From Coriobacteriia bacterium (GTDB lineage Bacteria; Actinomycetota; Coriobacteriia; Coriobacteriales; UBA8131): a stretch of DNA of 64,000 bases. Position numbers and translations under genes: made by a program. The stretch is from assembly GCA_009783085.1 (NCBI GenBank), contig WRHU01000001.1:128196-192195 (forward strand), in the 5' to 3' direction. The notes under the pieces are model-generated. The model worked only from the letters and a program-made list of their open reading frames with translations. It made no database searches and was not told the origin of the DNA. Below, piece by piece: positions 5,562 through 61,161 of this stretch. The first letter of the stretch is position 1; the number at the start of each line of letters is the position of its first letter.

Positions 5562-5722
5562 GCTTTAGCTAACATTCCTCTCAAAACTAAACACTTGTGA
5601 TACCATAAAGCCCATAAAGCAATGGACTTTTGTTGCGCATGCGCTCTTTTTACGCCTGCGAAAAACTTGAGTTTTCTGGCGGAGAGCTCGCAGCAAAACT
5701 ATCACGGAGGTGGAGGTTAGGT

Positions 5723-7240
5723 ATGGCAGACAAGAACAAGAAACTAACCAGAACAACAGGCGCACCGGTGGCGGATCACCAAGACGTTGCTACCGCTGGA
5801 GCGCGAGGACCTATGGTACTGCAAGACGTTTGGTTCCTCGAAAAAATGGCTCATTTTGACCGCGAGGTTATCCCCGAGCGCAGAATGCATGCCAAAGGAA
5901 GTGGCGCATTTGGCACTTTCAAAACAACGCACGATGTAACCCAGTACACCAAGGCAAGTCTATTTTCAAAAATCGGAAAAGAAACCGAAGTGTTTGTGCG
6001 CTTCTCTACCGTTGCCGGTGAGCGTGGCGCTGCAGATGCTGAGCGTGACATTCGTGGCTTTGCCATGAAGTTTTATACCGATGAGGGCAACTGGGACTTG
6101 GTGGGCAACAACACACCCGTATTTTTTATTCGCGACCCGATTCATTTCTCTGACCTTAACCATGCGGTCAAACGTGACCCCAAGACTAATATGCGAAGCG
6201 CCCAGAACAACTGGGATTACTGGACTATGCTTCCAGAGTCGCTTCATCAAGTTACCATCGTTATGAGCGACCGGGGCATTCCCGATGGCTATCGCCATAT
6301 GCACGGCTTTGGCAGCCACACCTACAGCTTATTTAACGATAAAAACGAGCGGGTGTGGGTTAAGTTTACCCTCAGAACGCAGCAAGGTATCAAAAATCTG
6401 AGCGACGAGGAAGCGGCGGAAGTGGTAGCAAATTGTCGTGAAAGCTCGCAAGATGACTTGTTTAGCGCTATTGAGAAAGGCGACTTCCCCCGCTGGACAC
6501 TCTATTTCCAGATTATGACTGAAGAGCAGGCACGTGCTCATAAGGACAGCCCTTTTGACATCACCAAGGTCTGGAGCCATAAGCAGTATCCACTTATTGA
6601 AGTGGGCGTACTTGAGCTCAATCGCAACCCCGAGAACTATTTTGCCGATGTTGAGCAGGCGGCATTTAACCCCACGAGCATCGTGCCCGGTATTGGGCAC
6701 TCCCCTGACAAGCTCTTGCAGGGTCGTCTTTTTTCTTATGGCGATGCACAACGCTACCGTCTTGGCGTTAATCATTATCAGATTCCCGTCAATTCTGCCA
6801 AAGTGCCCATTCATGCCTATCACCGCGACGGGCTTATGCGCGTAGACGGCAACTACGGCGCAACTAAGGGTTATCACCCCAATAGTTTTGACGAGTGGGC
6901 TGCTCAGCCTGAGTTCAAAGAGCCGCCACTCGCCATGGAAGGCGCTATTGACCACTACAGCCAGTACGATGATGACGATTGCTTCTATCAGCCGGGCGAT
7001 TTGTTCCGCCTTATGGAAGAGGACAAGCGTGCCCTTCTCATAAAAAACACAGCGGCAAACATTGAGCCCGTTACGAGCAACATTAAATACCGTCATGCTG
7101 CCCATTGCTATCTTGCAGATGAGGAGTACGGCACAAGGATTGCAGAGGCTTTGGGCTTGGAGCTTGCCAAGGTCAAAGAGCTTGCGGGCTTAGGGCGCGA
7201 GGAACGACTTGCTGCCACGAGCGAAGCAGCGTGGAAGTAA
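5723..7240 (+). CDS. katA: Monofunctional heme catalase (small-subunit type)
   Basis: Motifs [20 protein letters not shown] (distal His), RGFAMKFYT and [14 protein letters not shown] (proximal Tyr). ATG 5723 is preceded by GGAGGTGGAGG. The longer ORF from 5630 is rejected. Confidence 0.95.
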
Positions 7241-28054: not shown

Positions 28055-31000
28055 TCATCGTTTGGGCAGATATAAAGCCAATTTCTCAATAACCTCCTCA
28101 ATATCAAGAGGTTTTCCTACGTGAGAGTTCATGCCAGAATCGAGGCATTTTTGGACATCATCTTTGAATACGTTTGCCGTCATAGCGATGATAGGAATGT
28201 CCAATGCTTTCTCAAAACCCAGCTCCCGTATTTTTTGTGTGGTTTCGTAACCGTCCATTTCGGGCATTTGTACGTCCATAAAAATAGCGTCGTAGGCATC
28301 GGGATGAGCCTTAAACATTTCGTAGGTTTCTATGCCATTGACGGCACAGTCAATAGCCAGCTTGGTTGGCTCAAGTAAGGTCACTACTATCTCACGGTTG
28401 ATTTCGATATCCTCGGCAAGCAAAATATGATAGCCCTCAAACTGACCAATATGCTGCGTTACATCTCCGTCAGAGACCACCAACTCCTCACCAAAGAGTT
28501 CGTCGATAACTCCTTCTATGTCCGAGGAGAACAAAGGCTTAGAAACAAATCTGTCAACGCCTGCTGCCTTGGCAACACTTTCGACTTCGCTCCAGTCAAA
28601 GGCAGACATCAACACTACATAACAGGGCAAGGCACGCTTTTTCTTCTGCGACCGTATGCGCTTAACCAACTCAATGCCGTCGATGCCCGGCAGCTTCCAA
28701 TCAACAAAGCAAAGGTCGTAGCCACCGTTTTCTCCAATAAGACGCAAGGCGTATTCAGCCGTTTCTGCGGTGTCGCACGCAATGCCAAGCGAGCGCATGA
28801 TTTCCTTAAAGTACCAGAGCGCATCAGGATCATCTTCAACGGCAAGAACCTTCAGGTGCGTCCAATCATAGGAGGGCTTTAGCTGCTCGGCCCCCTCTGT
28901 CAACTTGACGGTAAAGCTAAAGGTTGCGCCATTGCCCAGTTCAGAGTCAACCCAAATCTCGCCGTCCATAAGCTCAATAATTTGTTTCGAGATGGCAAGC
29001 CCCAGCCCGGTACCGCCAAACTTTTTAGAGGTGGTGCTGTCCGCTTGCTGGAACGACTTAAACAGCTTGGCTTGCTGCTCGGGGCTTATCCCTATGCCAG
29101 AATCCGCTACGGACATCTTTATAGTGCACATTCCTTTGACGTTTTCGACTAGCTCAGTGTTTATGCTAATCGCTCCCTTGTCAGGAGTAAACTTCACCGC
29201 ATTACTCAAAAGATTGCTGATTACTTGTGCAAGATGCTGATCATCTCCGTGCAATACTTTGGGGATTTTACGGTCAACGTGTACTTCAAAGTCCTGCTGT
29301 TTTTCTTCAATGCGGAACTTATTAACACCCACTACGCGCTGCAGCATCTTTTCAAAATTAAAATCCTCGAGCGAAAGTTCAAACTTGCCCGCCTCAATTT
29401 TTGACATATCCAAAATATCGTTGATAACGCCCAACAGGTGCTTGGAGGCGACGTCTATCTTGTCAAAACAATCACGGATTCTGCTGCGGTCGCTTGAGTG
29501 CCTACCAATAGAAGTCATACCGATAATGGCGTTCATGGGCGTGCGAATCTCATGGCTCATGTTTGCCAAAAATGATGACTTTGCGCGGCTTTCTTGTTCC
29601 GCAACTTCAAGCATGCGCTTTTGATTTTTTGCTTCCTCGATGTATGAAATGTCAATAAAGTTTTCAAGCACCGCCGGGCGCCCATTGTAGGAGATGTTTG
29701 AAAGCGATTTTAGAATGGGAACAACCGTGCCGTCTGAGCGGGTAAACTTTTGCTCGGTTTTATTGGAGCCAGGCCCCAGGTCGAGGTCTAAGATAGGACA
29801 CATAACCGCCGGACAGAAAGTGTCTTGGCAAGACACGCCTACAATATCCTCCTTATTGCCTCCAAACAAACGCAATGCGGCTGGATTTACGTCGAGTACC
29901 TTGCGTGTTTGAGCGTCTATTACCGCAATAGAACTCTCAACATTTTCCCATACGGTTTCAAGCTGTTGGGATATATTGCGGTTTATGTCGTGTTCCTCTT
30001 TGGCATCATTCATAACCTTGACCATGCAGTTGGCTGGCAAATTGACGTTAAAGGCTATTTTTCGTGCCATGTTGTGACAGGTGCCAGACCCACAGGCGCC
30101 ACAGTCGATATTTTGCTCAGCATAGGTGTTTTTCTTAAGCTGCGCAAAGGCATCTTGAATATCTTGCTCGCCAATGCTGGGGAGCTCAAGGTCGATAGTC
30201 TGATAACCTCTTAAAAAGTCTGCAAGCTCAAGTTCTTTGTCAAGCTTTTTGTAGGCGGCTTCAAAATAGGCCTTATCATGGCTGTCCACAACACGCTTGC
30301 GGCGAGTGTTCATTGTTTTTTCTATCTCAAAAGTGGTTCTTGTGTGTGAGCTAGCAGGCCCCACGTTGCAGCCGTCCTCACAGTTGAGCACGTCAAACAA
30401 GTCGGGCAAGATTTCTGTAGAGGTTTTGGCGTAGGTGTTAAGTTTCTCGTAGACAGAAAACCCCTCTGCCTTTGAGATAAAGGGTTTTTTGCCCATAAAA
30501 AACTCGATATTTTCTTTAAGGCCTCCCGGCATGGGAAACAGTGCCCCCAGCCCGCCCTCGTCATAATCAAACTCTGTTTCTATCTCTGGAAGCTCAACCT
30601 TATGTTCCTCTAAATAAGCAAGCAGTTTTTCAAAGGTGACATTGTATTCTGCGATGCCTGTCTCGGTAAACTCACTCGTTTTGGCAACGCAGGGAGATAG
30701 GGCGGCTATGCGATCGCCCACCTTACGATAATTTTTCATGTAAATAGACGCACAGCCCATAGGACCGTGGACCGGAATAAGGTGCTTGAGGAGGTCGTGC
30801 TGATAGATCTCGCAATAATTGACAATCGCGGGGCACGGCTGTGTTATAAGCGGGCCCTTATCGCCTTGTTCAAGATAGCGCACCTGAGCCCAGATGCTAA
30901 TGTCAGCACCCAGCGAAACATCAAAAATGCTCTTGAGCCCCAGCTGCTTAAGATAGGTAAATATACGCTTGTAGTTAGGGATATTGGTTCGAATGGCAGG

Positions 31001-31285
31001 GGCAGCCATCAGAGTAATGGGAACGCCATTTTTGAGGTCTTCAAAAAAGCGCTCGGTATCATCAAGAAAGAAACGGGCATCATGCTTGCACGCCTTAAGA
31101 CAACGTCCGCATAAAATGCACTTGTCGCTGTCAACCTTAACTTTGATAGCACCTTCGCCGTCCTGATACGTGATGTTTGCCATCTCCATAGGACACTCGC
31201 GCACGCATCGGTTGCAGCCCGTGCAGTGTTCAGTTCTGGTGCTGATTATTGCTCTCACCTTGCACCACCCCTTTTTGAAATGCAA
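28055..31285 (-). CDS. Hybrid sensor histidine kinase/response regulator with N-terminal 2x[4Fe-4S] ferredoxin and [FeFe]-hydrogenase-like domain
   Basis: CTGCNRCVRECP and CILCGRCLKAC motifs. H-cluster-like motifs TQPCPAIV, SPCVAKTSE and NCEDGCNVGP. CGACGSGTC..(16)..C, a PAS-like region, the H-box MSHEIRTPMN, HATPase motifs (DSGIGI, GGTGLGL) and two REC domains (FVDWKLPGIDG, FMDVQMPEMDG). Start is TTG 31285 or GTG 31258. Confidence 0.85.
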   Translation of the reverse strand: MHFKKGWCKVRAIISTRTEHCTGCNRCVRECPMEMANITYQDGEGAIKVKVDSDKCILCGRCLKACKHDARFFLDDTERFFEDLKNGVPITLMAAPAIRTNIPNYKRIFTYLKQLGLKSIFDVSLGADISIWAQVRYLEQGDKGPLITQPCPAIVNYCEIYQHDLLKHLIPVHGPMGCASIYMKNYRKVGDRIAALSPCVAKTSEFTETGIAEYNVTFEKLLAYLEEHKVELPEIETEFDYDEGGLGALFPMPGGLKENIEFFMGKKPFISKAEGFSVYEKLNTYAKTSTEILPDLFDVLNCEDGCNVGPASSHTRTTFEIEKTMNTRRKRVVDSHDKAYFEAAYKKLDKELELADFLRGYQTIDLELPSIGEQDIQDAFAQLKKNTYAEQNIDCGACGSGTCHNMARKIAFNVNLPANCMVKVMNDAKEEHDINRNISQQLETVWENVESSIAVIDAQTRKVLDVNPAALRLFGGNKEDIVGVSCQDTFCPAVMCPILDLDLGPGSNKTEQKFTRSDGTVVPILKSLSNISYNGRPAVLENFIDISYIEEAKNQKRMLEVAEQESRAKSSFLANMSHEIRTPMNAIIGMTSIGRHSSDRSRIRDCFDKIDVASKHLLGVINDILDMSKIEAGKFELSLEDFNFEKMLQRVVGVNKFRIEEKQQDFEVHVDRKIPKVLHGDDQHLAQVISNLLSNAVKFTPDKGAISINTELVENVKGMCTIKMSVADSGIGISPEQQAKLFKSFQQADSTTSKKFGGTGLGLAISKQIIELMDGEIWVDSELGNGATFSFTVKLTEGAEQLKPSYDWTHLKVLAVEDDPDALWYFKEIMRSLGIACDTAETAEYALRLIGENGGYDLCFVDWKLPGIDGIELVKRIRSQKKKRALPCYVVLMSAFDWSEVESVAKAAGVDRFVSKPLFSSDIEGVIDELFGEELVVSDGDVTQHIGQFEGYHILLAEDIEINREIVVTLLEPTKLAIDCAVNGIETYEMFKAHPDAYDAIFMDVQMPEMDGYETTQKIRELGFEKALDIPIIAMTANVFKDDVQKCLDSGMNSHVGKPLDIEEVIEKLALYLPKR

Positions 31286-37236: not shown

Positions 37237-38160
37237 ATGCCCGATTTACACCTGCGTCTTGGCCGCGATATGCTTATTGTTGACGGTTCTTTAGAAACCA
37301 TGCTTCAACGCGCTGACATTCCCTCAGATGAGTGTGCTGCGTATCTCAATGTGCTTGACCCTGAGCTCATAGAGGACATTCATCGCCGTTACCTTATGGC
37401 AGGTGCTGCGTGTATCTCTACCAATACCTCGCAAGCTACCCGCGCTCAATTGGCGCAATTTGGGCTTGAGGAGCAGCTTGAGGAGATAAATCGAGCTGGC
37501 GTTGTGGCAGCTCGGGAGGCGGGAGCGCCCCATATTTTAGCGACAATGGGTTTTTGCTGGGAGTTGCTTGCTTTAAGCGAGCCCTGCAAACAGGACGAAA
37601 AGCAGCACTACAACCGTTGCTTTGATCACTATCTTGAACAAGCCTGCGCTCTTGTTGCAGCTGAGGTTGATGCCCTACTCATAGAGAGCAGAACCTCTCT
37701 TGATGATGCTCGGTGTGCCGTCCGTGCTGCAAGGACTGCCTGCGCTGCCATGGGAAGCATGCCTTTAGTAATTGCGAGCTGCACTTTCTTAGAAAACGGA
37801 CGTATGGCTAGCTGCGGCTCTGACGTAGCTCGTGCAGCATCTGTACTTGAGGAGGCAGGTGCTGACGTGATGGGCCTGAGCTGCATGGAGCCAGCGCACC
37901 TGATTGAGCTGATGCAGCAGCTGGCTTCTGCGACAACTTTGCCCCTCATTGCCTTGCCCAATACGGACACACCTACCCTCGATGCCAACGCCTTGGCTCA
38001 CTATTCCATTACCCCTGACGAAATAGCTTTTTATGCCGAGCAACTACACACCTGTGGGGTTCAGTTTATCGGCTCATGTTGCGGGTCAACGCCTGCCCAT
38101 ACGGGAGCTCTCTACGCTACGCTCGGCGATAGAGATGTTATTGCCCGCACAAACTCCTAG
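37237..38160 (+). CDS. Homocysteine S-methyltransferase-domain protein (stand-alone Hcy-binding domain)
   Basis: MLIVDGSLETML N-terminus and the C-terminal Zn motif IGSCCGSTPAHT, like the MetH/BHMT Hcy domain. GAGGAG RBS. Confidence 0.75.
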   Translation: MPDLHLRLGRDMLIVDGSLETMLQRADIPSDECAAYLNVLDPELIEDIHRRYLMAGAACISTNTSQATRAQLAQFGLEEQLEEINRAGVVAAREAGAPHILATMGFCWELLALSEPCKQDEKQHYNRCFDHYLEQACALVAAEVDALLIESRTSLDDARCAVRAARTACAAMGSMPLVIASCTFLENGRMASCGSDVARAASVLEEAGADVMGLSCMEPAHLIELMQQLASATTLPLIALPNTDTPTLDANALAHYSITPDEIAFYAEQLHTCGVQFIGSCCGSTPAHTGALYATLGDRDVIARTNS

Positions 38161-39167
38161 CTCAGGTAGGGCTCAAGCGCAGCAGACAAAACCTCGACGT
38201 GGGCTTGGCCCTCATTGAGGCACGGCACGTAGACAAACTCCCCTTTTTGTAGGGGCACTCCTGCCTCCGCGCAAGCGTTTTCATAGTGCAACAACAGCTC
38301 GTGGGGTATGTCATACAGCGTTTCAAGGCAATCTACCGAAAATCCTGGACAGACAAAAAACAGGCGCCCCTTTTTGTTGGCCGCTTCTTGCACAAGCGTT
38401 TCTTTGGTAAAGGGCCCGAGCCAATCTCTTCCTTTGTCAAAGCGGCACTGATAACTTGAGCTTAACTGCTCGTCTGTAATGCCCAAGGCACGCGCTACCG
38501 CAGCACTGGTTGCCTCACACTGCTGCTGATAGGTATCCCCTGCCGCTACATCAACCAAGGGTATCGAGTGGTATGAGAGAAGCAGTTTGTCGCCTTGGGC
38601 AGCGTTAAAACCAGCCTCTTGTATTGAACGAGCAAGGGCGTTTGCGTAGCTGTTCACAGCATGATAGTTGCCAATAAGTTGCCAGCTTATGTTCCAGTCA
38701 AGCTTGGCAAGTGCTGCAGCCACCGCATCCTCAACAACCTTAGTAGTCGAATGGGCGCTTTGCGGGTATAGTGGCAACACTACCAGCTTTTCGCAGCCAG
38801 CCTCACGTAAGTTTTCCAGTACAGTAGGTATGCTTGGTTCACCAAAGCTCATTGCTGAGAGAACCTGCACCTTTTCAAACCCCTCTTTTTGCAAAGACCG
38901 TTGGAGATTGGAAGCCAGAGCTTCTTGCAAAACCAGCAGCGGCGAGCCTTTATCCGTCCACACCGCCTCATATTTTGCAGCACTTACTTTTGAGCGCCGA
39001 GGCAAAATAGCAAGGCGCAAGATAAACCACCAAATAACAGGATTCATGGGAACAATGCGCTTGTCCGAGAGAAACTGTGCCAGATATTTTTTTACCGCCT
39101 GAGGCGTGGGCTCAGAGGGGGTGCCGGTGTTGGCAAGTATGATGCCGAGCTTTTCCTGCGTACTCAT
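38157..39167 (-). CDS. hemH: Ferrochelatase (possibly coproporphyrin ferrochelatase)
   Basis: N-terminus GIILANTGTPSEPT, PLYPQ and LLLSYHSIP motifs. 336 aa. Its start overlaps the upstream GNAT stop (ATGA). Confidence 0.85.
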   Translation of the reverse strand: MSTQEKLGIILANTGTPSEPTPQAVKKYLAQFLSDKRIVPMNPVIWWFILRLAILPRRSKVSAAKYEAVWTDKGSPLLVLQEALASNLQRSLQKEGFEKVQVLSAMSFGEPSIPTVLENLREAGCEKLVVLPLYPQSAHSTTKVVEDAVAAALAKLDWNISWQLIGNYHAVNSYANALARSIQEAGFNAAQGDKLLLSYHSIPLVDVAAGDTYQQQCEATSAAVARALGITDEQLSSSYQCRFDKGRDWLGPFTKETLVQEAANKKGRLFFVCPGFSVDCLETLYDIPHELLLHYENACAEAGVPLQKGEFVYVPCLNEGQAHVEVLSAALEPYLS

Positions 39168-44121: not shown

Positions 44122-45450
44122 TCAATTAAACACCCGTTTTACACCGATAATATCGCTTCTTTGTCCGTTCTTAACAGGCCAAATTACCACCTTATTAGGC
44201 CAAGACTCAATGACGTTTCCATTGCCAAGATAGATGGCCACATGAATGACTGTTCCTCCACTACCATAAAAAATCAAATCTCCTCGCTTTTTTTGGCTGT
44301 AGGGAACCGTTTTTAGCTTCTTAGAAGCCCAGAGGTTTCTGGACTCATATTCATAGCCGGGCTTAGAATGACGCACGCTGCTCACGGGGTACGGGTCAAC
44401 ACCGGCGGCATACAGGGCTTGCATGACGAGCCCGGAACAGTCTGCTCCTTGTGACGGTGTGCCAGAAGCTCCCACCACGTAATCTGAACCAAGGTAATCC
44501 ATGGCCCTGTCAATCATCGCGTCAATATGCTGTTTTTTTGTGCTGGAAGGGTTTACCTTAATGGGCGACACATACGCACCGAGCGTGTACCAAGATTTCT
44601 CCGAAAAGCCCATTTTGAGCCAGGTTGCTTCATTGACAACGCCAGTTGCCTTAAGTTTGTGCTTTTTTTGAAATTGCATGACCTTTGATTTTGTTTGGCT
44701 GGTATACCGTGGCCAATGCTTGCTGCCAATGCCAAAATAGCTGTTGACCTTTCTTGTTTTGAGCCCCATGTAACCAATGCTTAAGCTATAAGCTCCCGAA
44801 TGTTTAAGCGCAATCTCGTCTTTAATTTGCACATATTTTTTGGGATTTTGGTAGTAACGCTTGGGTTTTATCGTAGTGGTTGCACTGGTATAGGCGGTAC
44901 CCTCAGGGCTTTCAGGAATAACTATTCTCCATTTTGATGAGGCGAGCTTCCACCAGTCTTTGGGAAAGGCCAGCGTTACTGATGCACTTCCTGAGTTGGG
45001 AAGCGTGAGGGTTTTCTTGGTAACCCATTTATCTTTCTTGCACATTTGGAGCTTAAGGGTGCGCCCATACGCAGGACTTACCGTAATAGTTTTCTTGAGT
45101 GTGCTTCGGGCTTTTTTGGTGATTTTTTTATCGAGGCTGGTTGCCGAGGTAGTTTCTTTTTGTGAAGTGGGCGGTGTGGTTGATAGCACCTCTCCCGCCT
45201 GCGCACCGCTGTTGCTGGAGGAAACGCTGTTGCTGGAGGAAAGCTTAGTATCGCCGACGTTCGGCTCTGCCAACGCATCTAGTTCCTCGTCAGGGTATTC
45301 CTCCGAAAGGGCATACTCTGGGGTATCGGTGCAGTCAGTGCTGGCGTCAATATCAGAGATTTCATCGGCGTGCGCAAGCGGCGCAAGGCTCACCAGCAGG
45401 CACAGCGACAGAGCAAAACTCAGAAAGATTTTCAGGTACTTCAAGCGCAC
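44122..45450 (-). CDS. Secreted NlpC/P60 peptidoglycan hydrolase with PG-binding domain
   Basis: Signal peptide (LSLCLLVSLAPLAHA), PG_binding_1-like segment VMQFQKKHKLKATGVVNEATW, catalytic DCSGLV and GDLIFY...HVAIYLG. Confidence 0.85.
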   Translation of the reverse strand: MRLKYLKIFLSFALSLCLLVSLAPLAHADEISDIDASTDCTDTPEYALSEEYPDEELDALAEPNVGDTKLSSSNSVSSSNSGAQAGEVLSTTPPTSQKETTSATSLDKKITKKARSTLKKTITVSPAYGRTLKLQMCKKDKWVTKKTLTLPNSGSASVTLAFPKDWWKLASSKWRIVIPESPEGTAYTSATTTIKPKRYYQNPKKYVQIKDEIALKHSGAYSLSIGYMGLKTRKVNSYFGIGSKHWPRYTSQTKSKVMQFQKKHKLKATGVVNEATWLKMGFSEKSWYTLGAYVSPIKVNPSSTKKQHIDAMIDRAMDYLGSDYVVGASGTPSQGADCSGLVMQALYAAGVDPYPVSSVRHSKPGYEYESRNLWASKKLKTVPYSQKKRGDLIFYGSGGTVIHVAIYLGNGNVIESWPNKVVIWPVKNGQRSDIIGVKRVFN

Positions 45451-45802: not shown

Positions 45803-48604
45803 CTATTTCTTAACCTTGATGGTTACGGTCTTTGTTGCCTTACCTTGCGAGTTTTTAGCCGTAATGGTTATCTTATAGGTTCCCGGCTTAATACCCTTTT
45901 TGATAGTGAGCTTGCCTGTTTTGGAAATCGAAATCTTTTTGGCAATGCTCTTAGGTGCTTTTGTTATGCTGAACGTAGGAGCAGGAAAACCTTTGACCTT
46001 AAAGGCAATGGTGGTCTTTTTATAGTTCTTCTTTAAGGTAACTTTTGACTTGCCACCCGTAATAGTAGGTTTAACAAGTTTTTGGTTTACCTTAACCGCA
46101 ACGGCCTTGTTAACGGTGCCAGAAGGATTTTGGGCCTTGATAGTAAAGCTGTAGTTTCCTGCCTTAAGCCCCGCCGGTATCGTTAAAGCACCAGCAGGTG
46201 TAATACTAAAGCCAGCCGGAGCACCTACCAAAGATACCGTAGGTGCAGGTGTGCCTGCAATGGTGTAGTTCTTGGTCAGCTTGGCATAGCCTTCGGTAAG
46301 GGTAATGGTAGCGTCACCTGAGATGGTAGGCTTTGCTGCCGTTGCCTGCGGGCTTCCTTGTGGCAATACTTGCCCCTCGTTGTTTTTAAGCCACGTCTCA
46401 AGCGCAGCAGTATTGCTAATAAAATTATTCTGACATTCCAGATAGCATAGATATTTATTCTTGCTTATATCAAGGGCGGCAAGATTATTGTAGGCACAAC
46501 GTAGTTGAAAAAGATTAGTGTTCTTGCTCACGTCAAGCGTGGTGAGGCTGTTACGCTCACACCACAAATTCCCAAGATTAGTGTTTTTGCTAAGGTCAAT
46601 AGAGGTGAGTTTGTTTCCATGAGTTGCCTCATCATTGTTTCCAAAATCCAACAAATATAGATTTACATTCTTGGTAATATCAAGAGCTTTGAGCTGATTG
46701 TTGCCGCACCACAAGCTTACCAGCGCAGTGTTTTTGGTTACATCAAGAGAGCTGAGCTGATTGTCAAAACACGATAGTCGCTCCAATTGTGTGTTTTTGC
46801 TTACATCAAGTGCTTTGATTTTATTGTAGTCACAAAAAAGGATATCTAGTTCAGTGTTTGCACCCACATTAAGTACGACAAGCTGGTTCAAGCCACAGTC
46901 AAACCAGCGTAACTCAGAGTTCAAGCTTACATCAAGGGCGGTAAGCTGGTTAGTGTGACACCATAATTCGATAAGCATAGTATTTTTGCTTACATCAAGT
47001 ACAGCAAGTTGGTTCCAAGCACAACTCAGCCACATCAGCTCAGTGTTATTGCTTACATCAAGGGCGGTAAGCTGGTTGTCGTAGCAATAGAGCATCCCAA
47101 GCGCTGTATTGTTGCTTATGTCCAGTGTGCTTAGTTGGTTCTCATAACAGTTCAGCCACATCAGCCCAGTGTTATTACTTACGTCAAGCGTTGAAAGCTC
47201 AGTGTTACCACAACTTAAATCCGTTAAGTTAGTGTTCTGGGTTACGTCAAGGGTTCCAAGAGGGTTGTCAGAGCAATGCAAAGCTCCCAACTGCGTACAG
47301 ACGCTTACATCAAGAGAACTTAGGTTGTTGCCCGAACACTCCAAATAAACGAGTGCTGTTGCGGCGCTCACGTCAAGGGAGTCCAAATCACACCAAGCTA
47401 ACTCAACGCTAACAACATCAACGTTATCAATATCAGCTGGAACAACCACCGCTGAGGAGGCTCCTACGTAGTCATAAATGTAAATCCCACCATCGTCCTC
47501 ATAATACTTGAGGCCAGCAGCGGTAGTGGCGCCACCCTGCGGCATTACTTGACCCCAATGATCAGCATCGTCCAGCCATGCCATAAGCGCAGTAACGTCA
47601 GTAATGGAATTGTAGGAACAGTCTAACCAGCTCAGAGCTAAATTATTGCTTATATCAAGAGCGGTAAGATTATTGTAGGCACAATCAAGGTCTTCCAGCA
47701 AAGTATTGTTGCTTACATCCAGCGTAGTAAGTTGGTTGTTGTAGCAATAAAGACAATAGAGCTCGGTATTTTGACTCACGTCAAGCGTAACAAGTTGGTT
47801 GTTGTAGCAATAAAGACAATAGAGCTCGGTATTTTGACTCACGTCAAGCGTAACAAGTTGGTTGTTGACGCAATCAAGATGATAGAGCTCGGTATTTTGA
47901 CTCACGTCAAGTGTTGCAAGCCCAGTACTATCACAATCCAAATAACCCAACTGAGCATTATTGGTCACATTAAGCGTTTCAAGTGAATAATTGTAATAGC
48001 AATATAAGGTTCTCAGCTGCGTGCAAGCGCTTACGTCAAGTGAGTCTAGGTCACAGTCTACGAGCTCGACTTCAACAATATCCATACCATTTATTTTTTC
48101 TGGAACTATGACATTCGAGGTGCTACACCCATCTACATAAACCTCATAGCCATCATCCCAGTAGTAAAGACCAGAGACCACATCGTATCCGCTGGATAGT
48201 GGTGTTATTGTTTCATCATCGCTGCCTGTTTTGGCTCCTTTTGTTTTCTTGTCTCTTTTGGTGCCATGAGCCTTTTTGTCATTTTTATTGCTTTTGCTGT
48301 TCTTGTCTTTTTGGTAGCCTTGTTGAGCGCCAAAGCTGCTGGCATCTCTTTTAGCCTTGCTCTCATCAGAGCCCGTTTTTGCCGCTGAGCTATCAGTGCC
48401 ACCTGCAGCTTTTGTGTGTGGCGCAGGCTCGTTAGCAAAAGCGCTTGCGGGTGCAGACGCAAAACCCGAGCACACCAAAGCCAAAGCAAGGAGCATGGCA
48501 AGCAGACGCTTAGAAAGCGCTGTAGGCGTGGCTCGTTTGATTGGAGGAGGAGAGCTTAGCTTGGGATCAGAGAGAGAGGATTTACTACGTGGTTTACCAA
48601 TCAT
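45803..48604 (-). CDS. Secreted leucine-rich-repeat surface protein with two C-terminal Ig-like domains
   Basis: Signal peptide (LLAMLLALALVCSGFASAPASAFA) and a Lys/Ser-rich linker. Two blocks of about 21-aa LRRs (LxxLDVSxNTxLxxLxCxxNQ) and two repeats of about 85 aa (PTI(S/T)G...). ATG 48604 follows AAAGGAAA. No LPXTG motif. Confidence 0.8.
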   Translation of the reverse strand: MIGKPRSKSSLSDPKLSSPPPIKRATPTALSKRLLAMLLALALVCSGFASAPASAFANEPAPHTKAAGGTDSSAAKTGSDESKAKRDASSFGAQQGYQKDKNSKSNKNDKKAHGTKRDKKTKGAKTGSDDETITPLSSGYDVVSGLYYWDDGYEVYVDGCSTSNVIVPEKINGMDIVEVELVDCDLDSLDVSACTQLRTLYCYYNYSLETLNVTNNAQLGYLDCDSTGLATLDVSQNTELYHLDCVNNQLVTLDVSQNTELYCLYCYNNQLVTLDVSQNTELYCLYCYNNQLTTLDVSNNTLLEDLDCAYNNLTALDISNNLALSWLDCSYNSITDVTALMAWLDDADHWGQVMPQGGATTAAGLKYYEDDGGIYIYDYVGASSAVVVPADIDNVDVVSVELAWCDLDSLDVSAATALVYLECSGNNLSSLDVSVCTQLGALHCSDNPLGTLDVTQNTNLTDLSCGNTELSTLDVSNNTGLMWLNCYENQLSTLDISNNTALGMLYCYDNQLTALDVSNNTELMWLSCAWNQLAVLDVSKNTMLIELWCHTNQLTALDVSLNSELRWFDCGLNQLVVLNVGANTELDILFCDYNKIKALDVSKNTQLERLSCFDNQLSSLDVTKNTALVSLWCGNNQLKALDITKNVNLYLLDFGNNDEATHGNKLTSIDLSKNTNLGNLWCERNSLTTLDVSKNTNLFQLRCAYNNLAALDISKNKYLCYLECQNNFISNTAALETWLKNNEGQVLPQGSPQATAAKPTISGDATITLTEGYAKLTKNYTIAGTPAPTVSLVGAPAGFSITPAGALTIPAGLKAGNYSFTIKAQNPSGTVNKAVAVKVNQKLVKPTITGGKSKVTLKKNYKKTTIAFKVKGFPAPTFSITKAPKSIAKKISISKTGKLTIKKGIKPGTYKITITAKNSQGKATKTVTIKVKK
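47731..47919. repeat. 63-bp tandem repeat x3 inside the LRR gene (two copies identical)
   Basis: Units 47731..47793 and 47794..47856 are identical by eye. Unit 47857..47919 differs at a few positions. Each unit encodes one 21-aa LRR (NQLVTLDVSQNTELYCLYCYN). Confidence 0.9.
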
Positions 48605-48740
48605 GAGTGGTTTCCTTTCTTTTAATTGTGGCTCATAAGCCGCCACCCTTATGTACCGCACACACTATACGCTCCTCAAACGCAAAATGCAAGGGTTTTT
48701 AGGGGAAATGGCACTACAACCACTATGGACAACACACGCT

Positions 48741-59631: not shown

Positions 59632-60423
59632 TTACGCAGCCTCAGCTAAATCCTCGGCAGCGTCGCCAGCGGCATCTGCGGCATCACCCGCGGCATCGGC
59701 AGCAGCAGCTGCGCCATCTGCAAGCGCATCGGGGTCAAAGCCAACTACACCAGCATTGTAGATGTCAAAATGCTTGGCGCAGTATGCACAAAGACGAACC
59801 TTCTTGGCAGCAAAAGCGCCGTCAACATCGCCCTCGGCAAGATTTCCTGCACCAATTCTGTTGAGTGCAGAACACTCAGCCCAGGTGTGATACACCTCGC
59901 CAGAACCAGAAGTCCAACGAGCATTACCGGTGCCAAAATCACTTTGCTGCGTATTTGATTTAAGAAGCTCAAGATCCTCTGCAGAAACAGGGTTCCAGTC
60001 GGCACTCAGACCAACAGCAGCTGCCAGGCACACCGCTGCAAGAATAGAAACCAAAGCTTTGGCTCTGCCGTCGAGGTTTTTGTCGGTAAGCAGCAAGATA
60101 AGAATGGGGAAAAATGCGATAACCGCAATGATAGCCCCAAGCTGCGTTTTGATAAAGAACTCGACCTTGTTTTTCTCCGAAGGAGGGTCAATTTTGTTGG
60201 CTCGCTTCCACAAAAACGAACCGGCTACTACGAGGATAAGGTCGATTATCAAAGCAGCAACAATAAACCAGATGTAGTTTTCTACATTTGGCATAAGCAC
60301 TCTCAGCAAAATGAGAATACCCACTACCTCAGCAGCTATACCAAGTACCCAAAGCACGATTGCAAGTGCCCTGAACGTGGTAGGATTGCCACTTGGTCTT
60401 TCGTATCTTTTTATTTCAGCCAT
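59632..60423 (-). CDS. Hypothetical multi-TM protein with C-terminal Cys/His (sunset-like?) domain and Ala/Asp repeat tail
   Basis: About 5 TM helices, then EVYHTWAECS..(27)..RLCAYCAKH, then DAAGDAADAAGDAAEDLAEAA. GAAGGAAG RBS. Confidence 0.55.
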   Translation of the reverse strand: MAEIKRYERPSGNPTTFRALAIVLWVLGIAAEVVGILILLRVLMPNVENYIWFIVAALIIDLILVVAGSFLWKRANKIDPPSEKNKVEFFIKTQLGAIIAVIAFFPILILLLTDKNLDGRAKALVSILAAVCLAAAVGLSADWNPVSAEDLELLKSNTQQSDFGTGNARWTSGSGEVYHTWAECSALNRIGAGNLAEGDVDGAFAAKKVRLCAYCAKHFDIYNAGVVGFDPDALADGAAAAADAAGDAADAAGDAAEDLAEAA

Positions 60424-60463: not shown

Positions 60464-61105
60464 CTATTTCTTTCCGCCCAACAAACCGCCGACAATATCG
60501 CCAACGTCAATTCCCTTGCCGTCTAATACGCCACCAAGAGCGTCCAGCATTCCGCCGCCCTCTTCCTCTTTTTCTTTGGCCTTAGATTTAGGTGCAGGAG
60601 CCGCTTGTCCGCCTCCCAATAAACCACCGAGAGCGCCGAGGAGATTGCCGCCACCGGCCTCTTCTTCCTCTTCTTCTTCAACAACAGCTTTTGCGGCTCG
60701 TTTAGGAGCAGCCTTTGCTGGAGCAGAACCACCCTTGCCGCCACCCAAGAAACCGGTGATAAGCGTACCCATCAAATCGGGTGAAGCACTTTTGCTCGCC
60801 GATGAACCGCCGCCGCCCAAAACACTGCCAATCAAATCGCCAATGACATTGGGGTGACCAGCATTGGTCTTGCTGCCTCCCGTAAGCGTACCAAGAAGGC
60901 TTCCCAGCAAAGCATTGCCGCCACCTCCGCCGCCAAGCAGCAAGGCAAGAATGCTTCCCATATCAGGAAGCGGAATACCGCTGATTCCAGAAATATCCTC
61001 AATAGATTCATGGGGATGACTTTTGAAACGGTCGACCATCTCGGGATCGTCTTTTAAGATATCGGCGACCTGCTCAGCAATTTGACGAATCTCTTTCTCG
61101 TTCAT
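60464..61105 (-). CDS. Hypothetical Gly-rich low-complexity protein
   Basis: Repeated LLG(G/S)LLGGGG-type motifs, a poly-Glu tract and a structured-looking 45-aa N-terminus. ATG 61105 lies 5 nt after GGAGGA. The upstream ATG 61117 is part of that RBS. Confidence 0.55.
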   Translation of the reverse strand: MNEKEIRQIAEQVADILKDDPEMVDRFKSHPHESIEDISGISGIPLPDMGSILALLLGGGGGGNALLGSLLGTLTGGSKTNAGHPNVIGDLIGSVLGGGGSSASKSASPDLMGTLITGFLGGGKGGSAPAKAAPKRAAKAVVEEEEEEEAGGGNLLGALGGLLGGGQAAPAPKSKAKEKEEEGGGMLDALGGVLDGKGIDVGDIVGGLLGGKK

Positions 61106-61161
61106 ACTATCCTCCATTCGTTGTTATAAACACACCACGGTAGTACAGACACATAATGCAG

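Follow-up and report, generated by a model that had tools for sequence, protein, structure and literature searches.

We analyzed a 64,000-nucleotide stretch of a Coriobacteriia bacterium assembly (GenBank GCA_009783085.1, contig WRHU01000001.1, positions 128,196 to 192,195 of the forward strand; hereafter the window), focusing on a minus-strand gene in which a hydrogenase-like iron-sulfur (Fe-S) module is fused to a histidine kinase. The encoded protein is best explained as a hybrid histidine kinase, soluble and cytoplasmic, that takes its input from a hydrogenase converted into a sensor. We lean somewhat towards H2, or H2 combined with redox poise, as the signal that it senses. It is a new member of a known, bioinformatically recognized family, and in the literature consulted no fused member had been studied biochemically or genetically. 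Domains and motifs are collected in Table 1, and residues are numbered throughout from the TTG that opens the 1076-amino acid (aa) open reading frame (ORF).

Residues of the H-domain were mapped by alignment to CpI and other solved or group A [FeFe]-hydrogenases, and conservation of the pocket was counted across 120 homologues. Two cysteines, C302 and C306, were mapped via the conserved MACPGGC motif after alignment to 8a6t and two group A hydrogenases. All four H-cluster ligands have a counterpart in CpI (C151 = C300, C199 = C355, C302 = C499, and C306 = C503), the last forming the bridge to the [2Fe] subcluster. Also present are the residues that keep this subcluster in place (K202 = K358, E205 = E361, and P96 = P231). 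Replaced, on the other hand, is the proton relay, with P150 at C299, Q140 at E279, and I172 at S319. Q149 stands at S298, and the methionines framing the diiron site have become S197 (M353) and L300 (M497).

These positions are nearly invariant among the homologues. Within L1, the counts out of 120 were 116 for Q149, 117 for P150, and 119 for C151; within L2, 120 for Ser or Thr at 197, 120 for C199, 117 for K202, and 118 for E205; and within L3, 116 for L300, 119 for C302, and 120 for C306. The ligand cysteines and the equivalents of K358, E361, and P231 were kept in 117-120 homologues and also in distant relatives with other outputs. Four further cysteines beyond the H-domain (395, 398, 403, and 420) were kept in 119-120 of the 120. 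Of the N-terminal cluster motifs, the second (C56, C59, C62, and C66) was retained in 118 homologues and the first (C21, C24, C27, and C31, followed by P32) in 90.

Profile and fold comparisons gave the same answer. Fe_hyd_lg_C (PF02906) matched over its full length (2.1e-26, 93.5 bits against a cut-off of 22.1, profile positions 4-245 of 245), and the best sequence matches in the PDB were the [FeFe]-hydrogenases CbA5H, HydABC, and CpI. An AlphaFold2 (AF2) model of residues 1-565 (pLDDT 84.8, pTM 0.75) was searched against the PDB with Foldseek, and the top 50 hits were all [FeFe]-hydrogenases (E ~1e-20, probability 1.00). No solved group C or D structure was among the PDB sequence and fold matches. 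We rejected the reading of this region as a Cys-rich linker, given the full-length significant Pfam match, the hydrogenase fold, and a near-invariant pocket of a kind not expected of a mere linker.

These results bear out, well beyond what chance would give, what a first-pass annotation had read from the sequence: two ferredoxin-type CxxCxxCxxxC motifs (residues 21-31 and 56-66), three H-cluster motifs with their four ligand cysteines, a replaced proton-relay Cys in L1 and a degenerate Gly run in L3, an exact Cx2Cx4Cx16C motif, and a PAS-like segment with its own Cx4Cx4C (C486, C491, and C496) followed by HisKA, HATPase, and two receivers, all of them matched by alignment, Pfam, or position. 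The hidden Markov model search and structure prediction that it suggested produced the full-profile match and the retrieval of hydrogenases described above. The sensory (HydS, group C) signature that it named agrees with the published definition of group C, also termed M2f, in which two N-terminal clusters precede an H-domain that lacks the relay Cys, followed by Cx2Cx4Cx16C and then a PAS domain.

How does the protein fit existing classes? Profile, fold, the four ligand cysteines, and the K358 equivalent place it in the H-domain superfamily. The catalytic group A enzymes are marked by a proton pathway of C299, E279, and S319 (with E282 and R286) and by the motifs TSCCPxW, MPCxxKxxE, and ExMACxxGCxxGGGQ; our protein departs from them at C299, E279, S319, M353, and M497 and in its degenerate Gly run. 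The complete group C/M2f architecture is present, in the expected order. The hydrogenase genes that accompany group C/M2f members are missing, with none in the window and such genes at 2 of 79 relatives' loci. Cx2Cx4Cx16C has been described for both M2e and M2f enzymes, and group C/M2f-type enzymes bind the H-cluster and react with H2 in vitro.

Two sensory enzymes have been characterized and both carry Ala at the C299 position. TmHydS from Thermotoga maritima (group C/M2f) resembles our protein in its two N-terminal motifs, relay-less H-domain, Cx2Cx4Cx16C, and PAS domain. Unlike our protein, it ends after the PAS domain and needs a separate signaling partner, its gene shares an operon with a second hydrogenase gene, and its pocket holds Ala, Gly, and Ser at C299, M353, and M497, where ours holds Pro, Ser, and Leu. 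TamHydS from Thermoanaerobacter mathranii (group D/M2e) shares the Ser at M353, the Leu at M497, and the Cx2Cx4Cx16C cluster and is likewise associated with a kinase, in that a histidine-kinase-like ATPase is encoded next door, but it has no PAS domain, a domain that M2e enzymes lack, and no fused kinase. Its proton path runs via E252, a position occupied in our protein by Leu256, which also aligns with the Glu of an M2e-like protein from a relative's locus (L080_6). We rejected membership in group D, since a PAS domain is present and Leu256 replaces the diagnostic Glu, even though S197 does agree with group D at M353.

By alignment, then, the pocket matches neither group C nor group D in detail, with Q-P at 298-299, S at 353, and L at 497. 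We found no description of Gln-Pro at CpI 298-299 in the literature consulted. Judging from the homologues, the near-invariant Gln-Pro, standing where the characterized sensory enzymes have Ala, is a hallmark of this family. A few kinase-fused members (P0037, P0051, and P0062) show degenerate pockets (for example TQACEP, SSCLSMPDD, or an L1 Cys lost in IVRPNP). Their C-terminal four-Cys motif is still present, but the H-cluster has probably been lost from these paralogues.

We next consider the genomic surroundings of related sensor genes. Scanning one genome per species gave 315 related stretches, and the locus counts rest on the best 80 (47-64% identity). At an Azoarcus metagenome-assembled genome (MAG) locus (L074, 3230-8612), a gene fusing the module (48% identical) to a methyl-accepting chemotaxis protein (MCP) is followed by hydG, hydE, and hydF with overlapping codons. 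The hydG and hydF products scored above cut-off (TIGR03955, 463 bits against 312; TIGR03918, 456 against 326), and that of hydE fell just under (TIGR03956, 250 against 254.6). No second H-domain ORF was found on this 13-kb contig. Elsewhere, a hydG (797 bits) begins one base past a sensor-MCP gene (L078, 923-4024), and a HydF-like ORF lies 1.7 kb from a sensor gene (L083, 5631-11701). All three sensor-MCP fusions have the Q-P-C-P pocket, and two of the three come from Azoarcus MAGs. Maturase genes adjoining sensor genes favor a genuine H-cluster over Fe-S clusters only; they are the strongest evidence to hand that the family carries one, which is a statement about the family and not about this protein. 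They strengthen the earlier proposal of an H2- or redox-sensing kinase, which is also our best reading.

Several observations weigh against H2 sensing. Maturase linkage is rare (3 of 79 loci), canonical hydrogenase genes are adjacent to as few as the 2 of 79 loci given above, and the window contains no hydrogenase or HydE/F/G gene. A few family members lack ligands or the K358 equivalent, and Pro stands at the C299 position, where the characterized sensory enzymes have Ala. A published survey hardly found the P1-P3 motifs in 'C1' proteins of another phylum. Pfam found no Hpt domain in the protein, and neither an Hpt nor a response-regulator partner lies within the window. Finally, the C-terminal cluster of TamHydS was not reduced by H2 in a 2026 study. 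Because of those data, a simple model in which H2 reduces the C-terminal cluster is disfavored, and a conformational role for the C-terminal cluster domain is more likely than a simple redox relay.

An alternative deserving serious weight, although we judge it improbable, is that the protein senses redox state, O2, or NO by its Fe-S clusters only. The H-domain would then hold just the [4Fe-4S] subcluster, in the manner of Nar1/NARFL, and the kinase would respond to how reduced the ferredoxin pool is, or to oxidative damage of the clusters, rather than to H2. A protein with five potential clusters would respond sensitively to redox state or O2, some relatives have hemerythrin domains, either fused or alongside, and the proton pathway for turnover is missing. 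The lack of maturase and hydrogenase genes in the window, and of maturases at 76 of 79 relatives' loci, points the same way. Maturase genes are commonly unlinked to their hydrogenases, however, so their absence nearby is weak evidence. More difficult for this explanation is the near-invariance of the [2Fe]-holding residues (the equivalents of K358 and bridging C503, and the P231 region), which have no other known role, together with a hydGEF operon whose family member is the sole H-domain protein on its contig.

We also considered how often the sensor module is coupled to a kinase. A search of 5.8 billion proteins recovered >100 that share the whole architecture (45-60% identity), with sources including Clostridia, Spirochaetes, and Acidobacteriota, and architectural variants add PAS, GAF, hemerythrin, or dCache domains. 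On its own, the 431-aa sensor module matched 3091 cluster representatives at E ≤ 1e-3, with 592 of them reaching E ≤ 1e-30. Output domains were assigned by Pfam among the top 150 representatives, with 73 short and 40 more distant long relatives scanned. In the short class we counted MCP signaling domains in 51, GGDEF in 7, HisKA in 4, and HD-GYP and STAS in 1 each. The long class contained HATPase_c in 20 and HisKA in 19, Response_reg in 16, GGDEF in 10, and EAL, MCP, SpoIIE, and Hpt in 4 each. Every relative scanned, short or long, kept the Q-P-C / S-P-C..K..E / C..C / four-Cys signature.

Fusion to so many output types indicates, at the level of sequence, that the hydrogenase-derived module is a portable input domain for which a kinase is one common output. 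The first-pass annotation took HydS-type sensors to be usually separate proteins, which would make the direct fusion of sensor and phosphorelay exceptional. That view does not hold, as >100 proteins share the architecture, 60 of the 80 genome copies are kinase fusions, and fusions to MCP, GGDEF, EAL, HD-GYP, and SpoIIE domains are routine.

Almost all of the best 80 of the 315 stretches came from higher-termite gut-compartment MAGs (codes Nt197, Emb289, Lab288, Co191, and Th196), the remainder from other MAG sets and insect-associated OttesenSCG single-cell genomes. Carriers included Treponema, Oscillospiraceae, Lachnospiraceae, Defluviitaleaceae, Holophagaceae, and Fibrobacterota lineages, as well as Synergistaceae, Desulfovibrionaceae, Azoarcus, and Oxalobacter, often with 2-3 sensor copies per genome (loci L005-L084). 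The termite gut is rich in H2. This distribution suggests a habitat-specific expansion or horizontal spread of the sensor module. The accession series of our assembly is common to termite MAGs, so the query is very probably itself a termite-gut MAG and the ranking is biased accordingly. Hence, the shared habitat of its nearest relatives is expected, and what stands out is the spread across phyla.

Between the module and the kinase, the AF2 model places a helix of 28 residues that starts right after the last ligand, C420, and runs into the PAS domain; a second helix (547-564) exits the PAS domain toward HisKA. In relatives with other outputs the conserved sensor module ends at the first helix, which we propose as the transmission element on the strength of the model. 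The phospho-acceptor H578 is His in 120 of 120 homologues, and the HATPase boxes are intact (N695; D728, G730, and G732; G757-G762). Response_reg matched two stretches (2e-41). The first receiver has D862, S894, and K916, with the Asp conserved in 96 of 105 aligned sequences; in the second, D1004 and T1036 are invariant and K1058 occurs in 119 of 120. By these residues the kinase core is fully competent and, with its two receivers, the protein qualifies as a hybrid histidine kinase.

The PAS domain raises the question of which part does the sensing. Its Cys motif, with the family form C-x4-C-P-x3-C-P-[IV]-[LM]-[DE] and a fourth Cys in some homologues, was retained in 41-46 of 54 same-architecture homologues (C486 in 46, C491 in 41, C496 in 46, and an Asp or Glu at 500 in 47). 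The motif may form an additional metal-binding or redox-active site, conceivably a fifth metal centre. PAS domains are common ligand-binding inputs of kinases, and NreB provides an example with an Fe-S cluster. One could therefore take the PAS domain as the real sensor, its Cys motif (Cx4CPx3CP..D) binding a metal, an Fe-S cluster, or a small ligand or forming a redox disulfide, with the hydrogenase-like part as an appendage for electron delivery or structure. We consider this quite unlikely. The module occurs without PAS in most of its MCP and GGDEF fusions (PAS in 1 of 73 short-class relatives), implying that the hydrogenase module signals alone. Moreover, the Cys motif was found in 9 of 60 genome copies even with a relaxed pattern, and AF2 confidence is low there (57-62).

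That the protein is primarily a working hydrogenase, producing or taking up H2 under the control of its attached phosphorelay domains, is very hard to believe: TmHydS and TamHydS do turn over H2 in vitro at low rates and the N-terminal F-clusters could connect to ferredoxin, but the proton pathway is replaced (C299P, E279Q, and S319I) without the group D alternative (L256, not Glu), the kinase core is fully catalytic, and the same module is found on chemoreceptor and cyclic di-GMP (c-di-GMP) outputs, where a metabolic enzyme would make no sense. A small remaining probability goes to explanations other than these.

Returning to a sensor of H2, its likely outputs can be judged from genes beside those of relatives. 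At 18 of 79 loci, the sensor gene has a REC-HD-GYP (14 loci) or REC-GGDEF (4 loci) response regulator within 500 bp, with 4-bp overlaps in several cases, and among kinase-type loci with enough flank the proportion is 13 of 46. Examples are L015:8952-10004, L037:8991-10004, L018:13009-13938, and L036:6692-7603. Such abutting regulators point to c-di-GMP as a frequent output. A protein composed of a helical domain and REC occurs at L038, L043, and L015. The surroundings of the homologues on four long contigs included no hydrogenase, maturase, or Hpt genes, and three of the four have another hybrid kinase nearby.

Group A-like hydrogenase ORFs adjoin the sensor genes at L024:14359-16119(-) and L080:11083-12684(+). 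Their L1 reads ITSCSPGW, with Ser apparently in place of the second Cys of the canonical TSCCPxW, and they keep MPC..KK.E-type and MACPGGCVNGGGQ motifs. The second of these contigs also encodes a 429-aa TamHydS-like protein of M2e/group D type (L080:5309-6598; SSACP, SPCPAK, GG-E, and Cx2Cx4Cx16C). With an M2e-like gene, a Q-P-C-P sensor, and a group A-like hydrogenase on the same contig, one organism can hold both sensor types.

We envisage signaling as follows. The H-domain would receive a genuine H-cluster from HydE/F/G and would bind and slowly oxidize H2; poor turnover is expected because the canonical proton relay has been removed (C299P, E279Q, and S319I), as in the characterized sensory enzymes. 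The state that this imposes on the H-domain and the C-terminal cluster domain, whether redox or conformational, would then pass through the helix from C420 to the PAS domain and DHp, changing autophosphorylation of H578. From there, the phosphoryl group would move to the protein's own receivers (D1004 and D862) and finally to a partner encoded elsewhere. The readout would probably be H2 partial pressure against the redox poise of the electron partner of the N-terminal clusters. Ballor, Paulsen and Leadbetter reportedly proposed that H-domain proteins feed phosphorelay or methylation pathways. Here, the output would probably be behavior (c-di-GMP, motility, or attachment) rather than hydrogenase gene expression, by analogy with relatives that abut REC-HD-GYP or REC-GGDEF regulators or fuse the module to MCP or GGDEF domains.

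The idea of such a sensor has precedents. HydDB lists putative [FeFe] subtypes C1 ('histidine kinase-linked'), C2 ('chemotactic'), and C3 ('phosphatase-linked'), which are alike in concept, coupling a hydrogenase-like sensor to kinases, MCPs, or phosphatases; they are defined by sequence clustering and are described as 'transcribed with' regulators. Sensors linked to c-di-GMP are not among the named HydDB classes. A 2024 survey found HATPase_c fused in some C1 proteins, and a genome-mining paper dropped C2 hits as unvalidated hydrogenases. In the [NiFe] system HoxBC/HoxJ/HoxA of Ralstonia eutropha (HydDB group 2b), a slow hydrogenase likewise reports H2 to a PAS-like histidine kinase, but the metal site and fold are unrelated, the polypeptides are separate, and the output is transcription of hydrogenase genes. 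'Hydrogen sensors' also figure in the title of a 2012 paper on termite treponemes (Ballor, Paulsen & Leadbetter 2012, Microb Ecol 63:282). These share the habitat and probably the protein family of our kinase, with Treponema isolates as the source there and a Coriobacteriia MAG here. The first-pass description of an uncharacterized system is right in that no fused member has been studied, but the class itself is recognized through HydDB C1, the 2024 survey, and the 2012 title.

Gene callers differ on where the gene starts. The longest ORF (28055..31285) opens with TTG at 31285, and a GTG codon at residue 10 is preceded by AAGGGGTGG, a purine-rich sequence 6 nt upstream. In homologues the first Cys lies ~11 residues after the start. 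Given the upstream AAGGGGTGG and the start positions of homologues, the true start is probably this GTG and the product a protein of 1067 aa. Two NCBI proteins from Coriobacteriales/Coriobacteriia MAGs (MDR2714219.1 and MCL1890538.1) are 1067 aa long and 100% identical. The 1044-aa call in JGI/ENA deletes the first Fe-S motif and is less likely. NCBI names the 1067-aa protein 'response regulator', and elsewhere the family appears as 'diguanylate cyclase', '4Fe-4S binding protein', or 'PAS domain S-box protein'. Among NCBIfam models there is none for the sensor module; TIGR04105 comes closest but scores below its cut-off.

Table 1. Features of the hybrid sensor kinase gene and its product, in window coordinates.
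Feature	Position	Strand	Basis or remark
Hybrid sensor kinase gene	28055..31258	-	Probable GTG start 31258; stop codon 28055-28057
N-terminal ferredoxin-like domain, two [4Fe-4S] motifs; presumed electron entry/exit chain	31076..31237	-	Pfam Fer4_7, residues 20-70, 3e-9
[FeFe]-hydrogenase H-domain, residues 91-310	30356..31015	-	Pfam PF02906; PDB sequence matches 1e-18; Foldseek 1e-20
L1/P1 motif TQPCPAIV	30821..30844	-	Alignment to solved hydrogenases; conservation in 120 homologues
L2/P2 motif SPCVAKTSE	30671..30697	-	Alignment to solved hydrogenases; conservation in 120 homologues
L3/P3 motif LNCEDGCNVGP, Gly run degenerate	30356..30388	-	Alignment; conservation in 120 homologues
C-terminal accessory cluster motif C395-x2-C398-x4-C403-x16-C420	30026..30103	-	Exact Cx2Cx4Cx16C; weak Pfam FeS PF04060 match
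Long helix, residues 421-448	29942..30025	-	AF2 secondary structure, pLDDT 80-82
PAS domain, residues 453-547	29645..29929	-	Pfam PAS_9 3.9e-8; AF2 PAS-like strands 509-545
Cys motif within PAS, C486-x4-C491-P-x3-C496-P-I-L-D500	29786..29830	-	Conserved in same-architecture homologues
HisKA/DHp domain, phospho-acceptor H578 in MSHEIRTP	29387..29584	-	Pfam 1.9e-17, residues 568-633
HATPase_c catalytic domain, residues 680-796	28898..29248	-	Pfam 9e-30; N, G1, and G2 boxes intact
Receiver domain 1, divergent	28502..28855	-	Second Response_reg stretch; boundaries estimated from motif positions
Receiver domain 2, typical phosphorelay receiver	28079..28426	-	Best Response_reg stretch, residues 954-1069

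Within the window, the sensor gene is an orphan among housekeeping genes. It is flanked by a cold-shock gene and by coaD-rsmD-recG; the immediate neighbors named earlier as cspA and coaD proved to encode a cold-shock-domain protein and a CoaD-like cytidylyltransferase, and the remark that no Hpt protein or output regulator is adjacent extends to the full 64 kb. The GC content of the sensor gene is low (47.3% against 50.7 ± 2.2) but its GC3 is ordinary, and recent horizontal acquisition at this locus is unsupported. Promoter and terminator scans around the gene gave counts equal to the shuffled expectation.

Other genes in the window were recorded in passing. A haem catalase gene at 5630-7240(+) (Pfam Catalase, 2.6e-184) and a ferrochelatase gene at 38157-39167(-), in the same window as a presumably O2-sensitive Fe-S sensor, suggest that the host meets oxygen or peroxide. 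The gene at 45803-48661(-) encodes a 952-aa leucine-rich-repeat, internalin-like protein and has the lowest GC of the larger genes (44.4%); beside it, 44122-45450(-) encodes an NlpC/P60 peptidoglycan hydrolase, and the pair may form a surface or host-interaction island. Two adjacent ORFs at 59632-60423(-) and 60464-61117(-) (263 and 217 aa) had no Pfam match at E ≤ 0.001.

These findings bear on whether the [FeFe] sensory hydrogenases of groups C and D really sense H2, and on how they pass on the signal, given that the only two characterized enzymes have no known partner. Identifying the interaction partners of HydS was called critical in the 2026 study. Here the signaling partner is in cis, so that comparing H578 autophosphorylation in the presence and absence of H2 would read out signaling directly at the biochemical level, and changes at P150, C420, or helix 421-448 could map the signal path. 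The value of the protein is hence practical, as a one-polypeptide test object rather than a new type of system.

The hydGEF operons, c-di-GMP regulators, MCP fusions, and termite-gut enrichment together point to H2-guided behavior. Physiological hints exist, as H2 promotes both motility and the dispersal of biofilms of a sulfate reducer, but a molecular sensor for H2-guided behavior has been lacking. Public annotation hides these proteins. Speculatively, and with considerable doubt, the Q-P-C-P module may represent a distinct, biochemically unexplored clade of H2 receptors, spread over at least eight phyla of termite- and insect-gut bacteria and wired mainly to chemotaxis and c-di-GMP, not to the control of hydrogenase genes. 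If so, these bacteria would steer or switch lifestyle along H2 gradients, and the kinase-fused members would be the first form to offer a direct in vitro readout of H2-dependent signaling.

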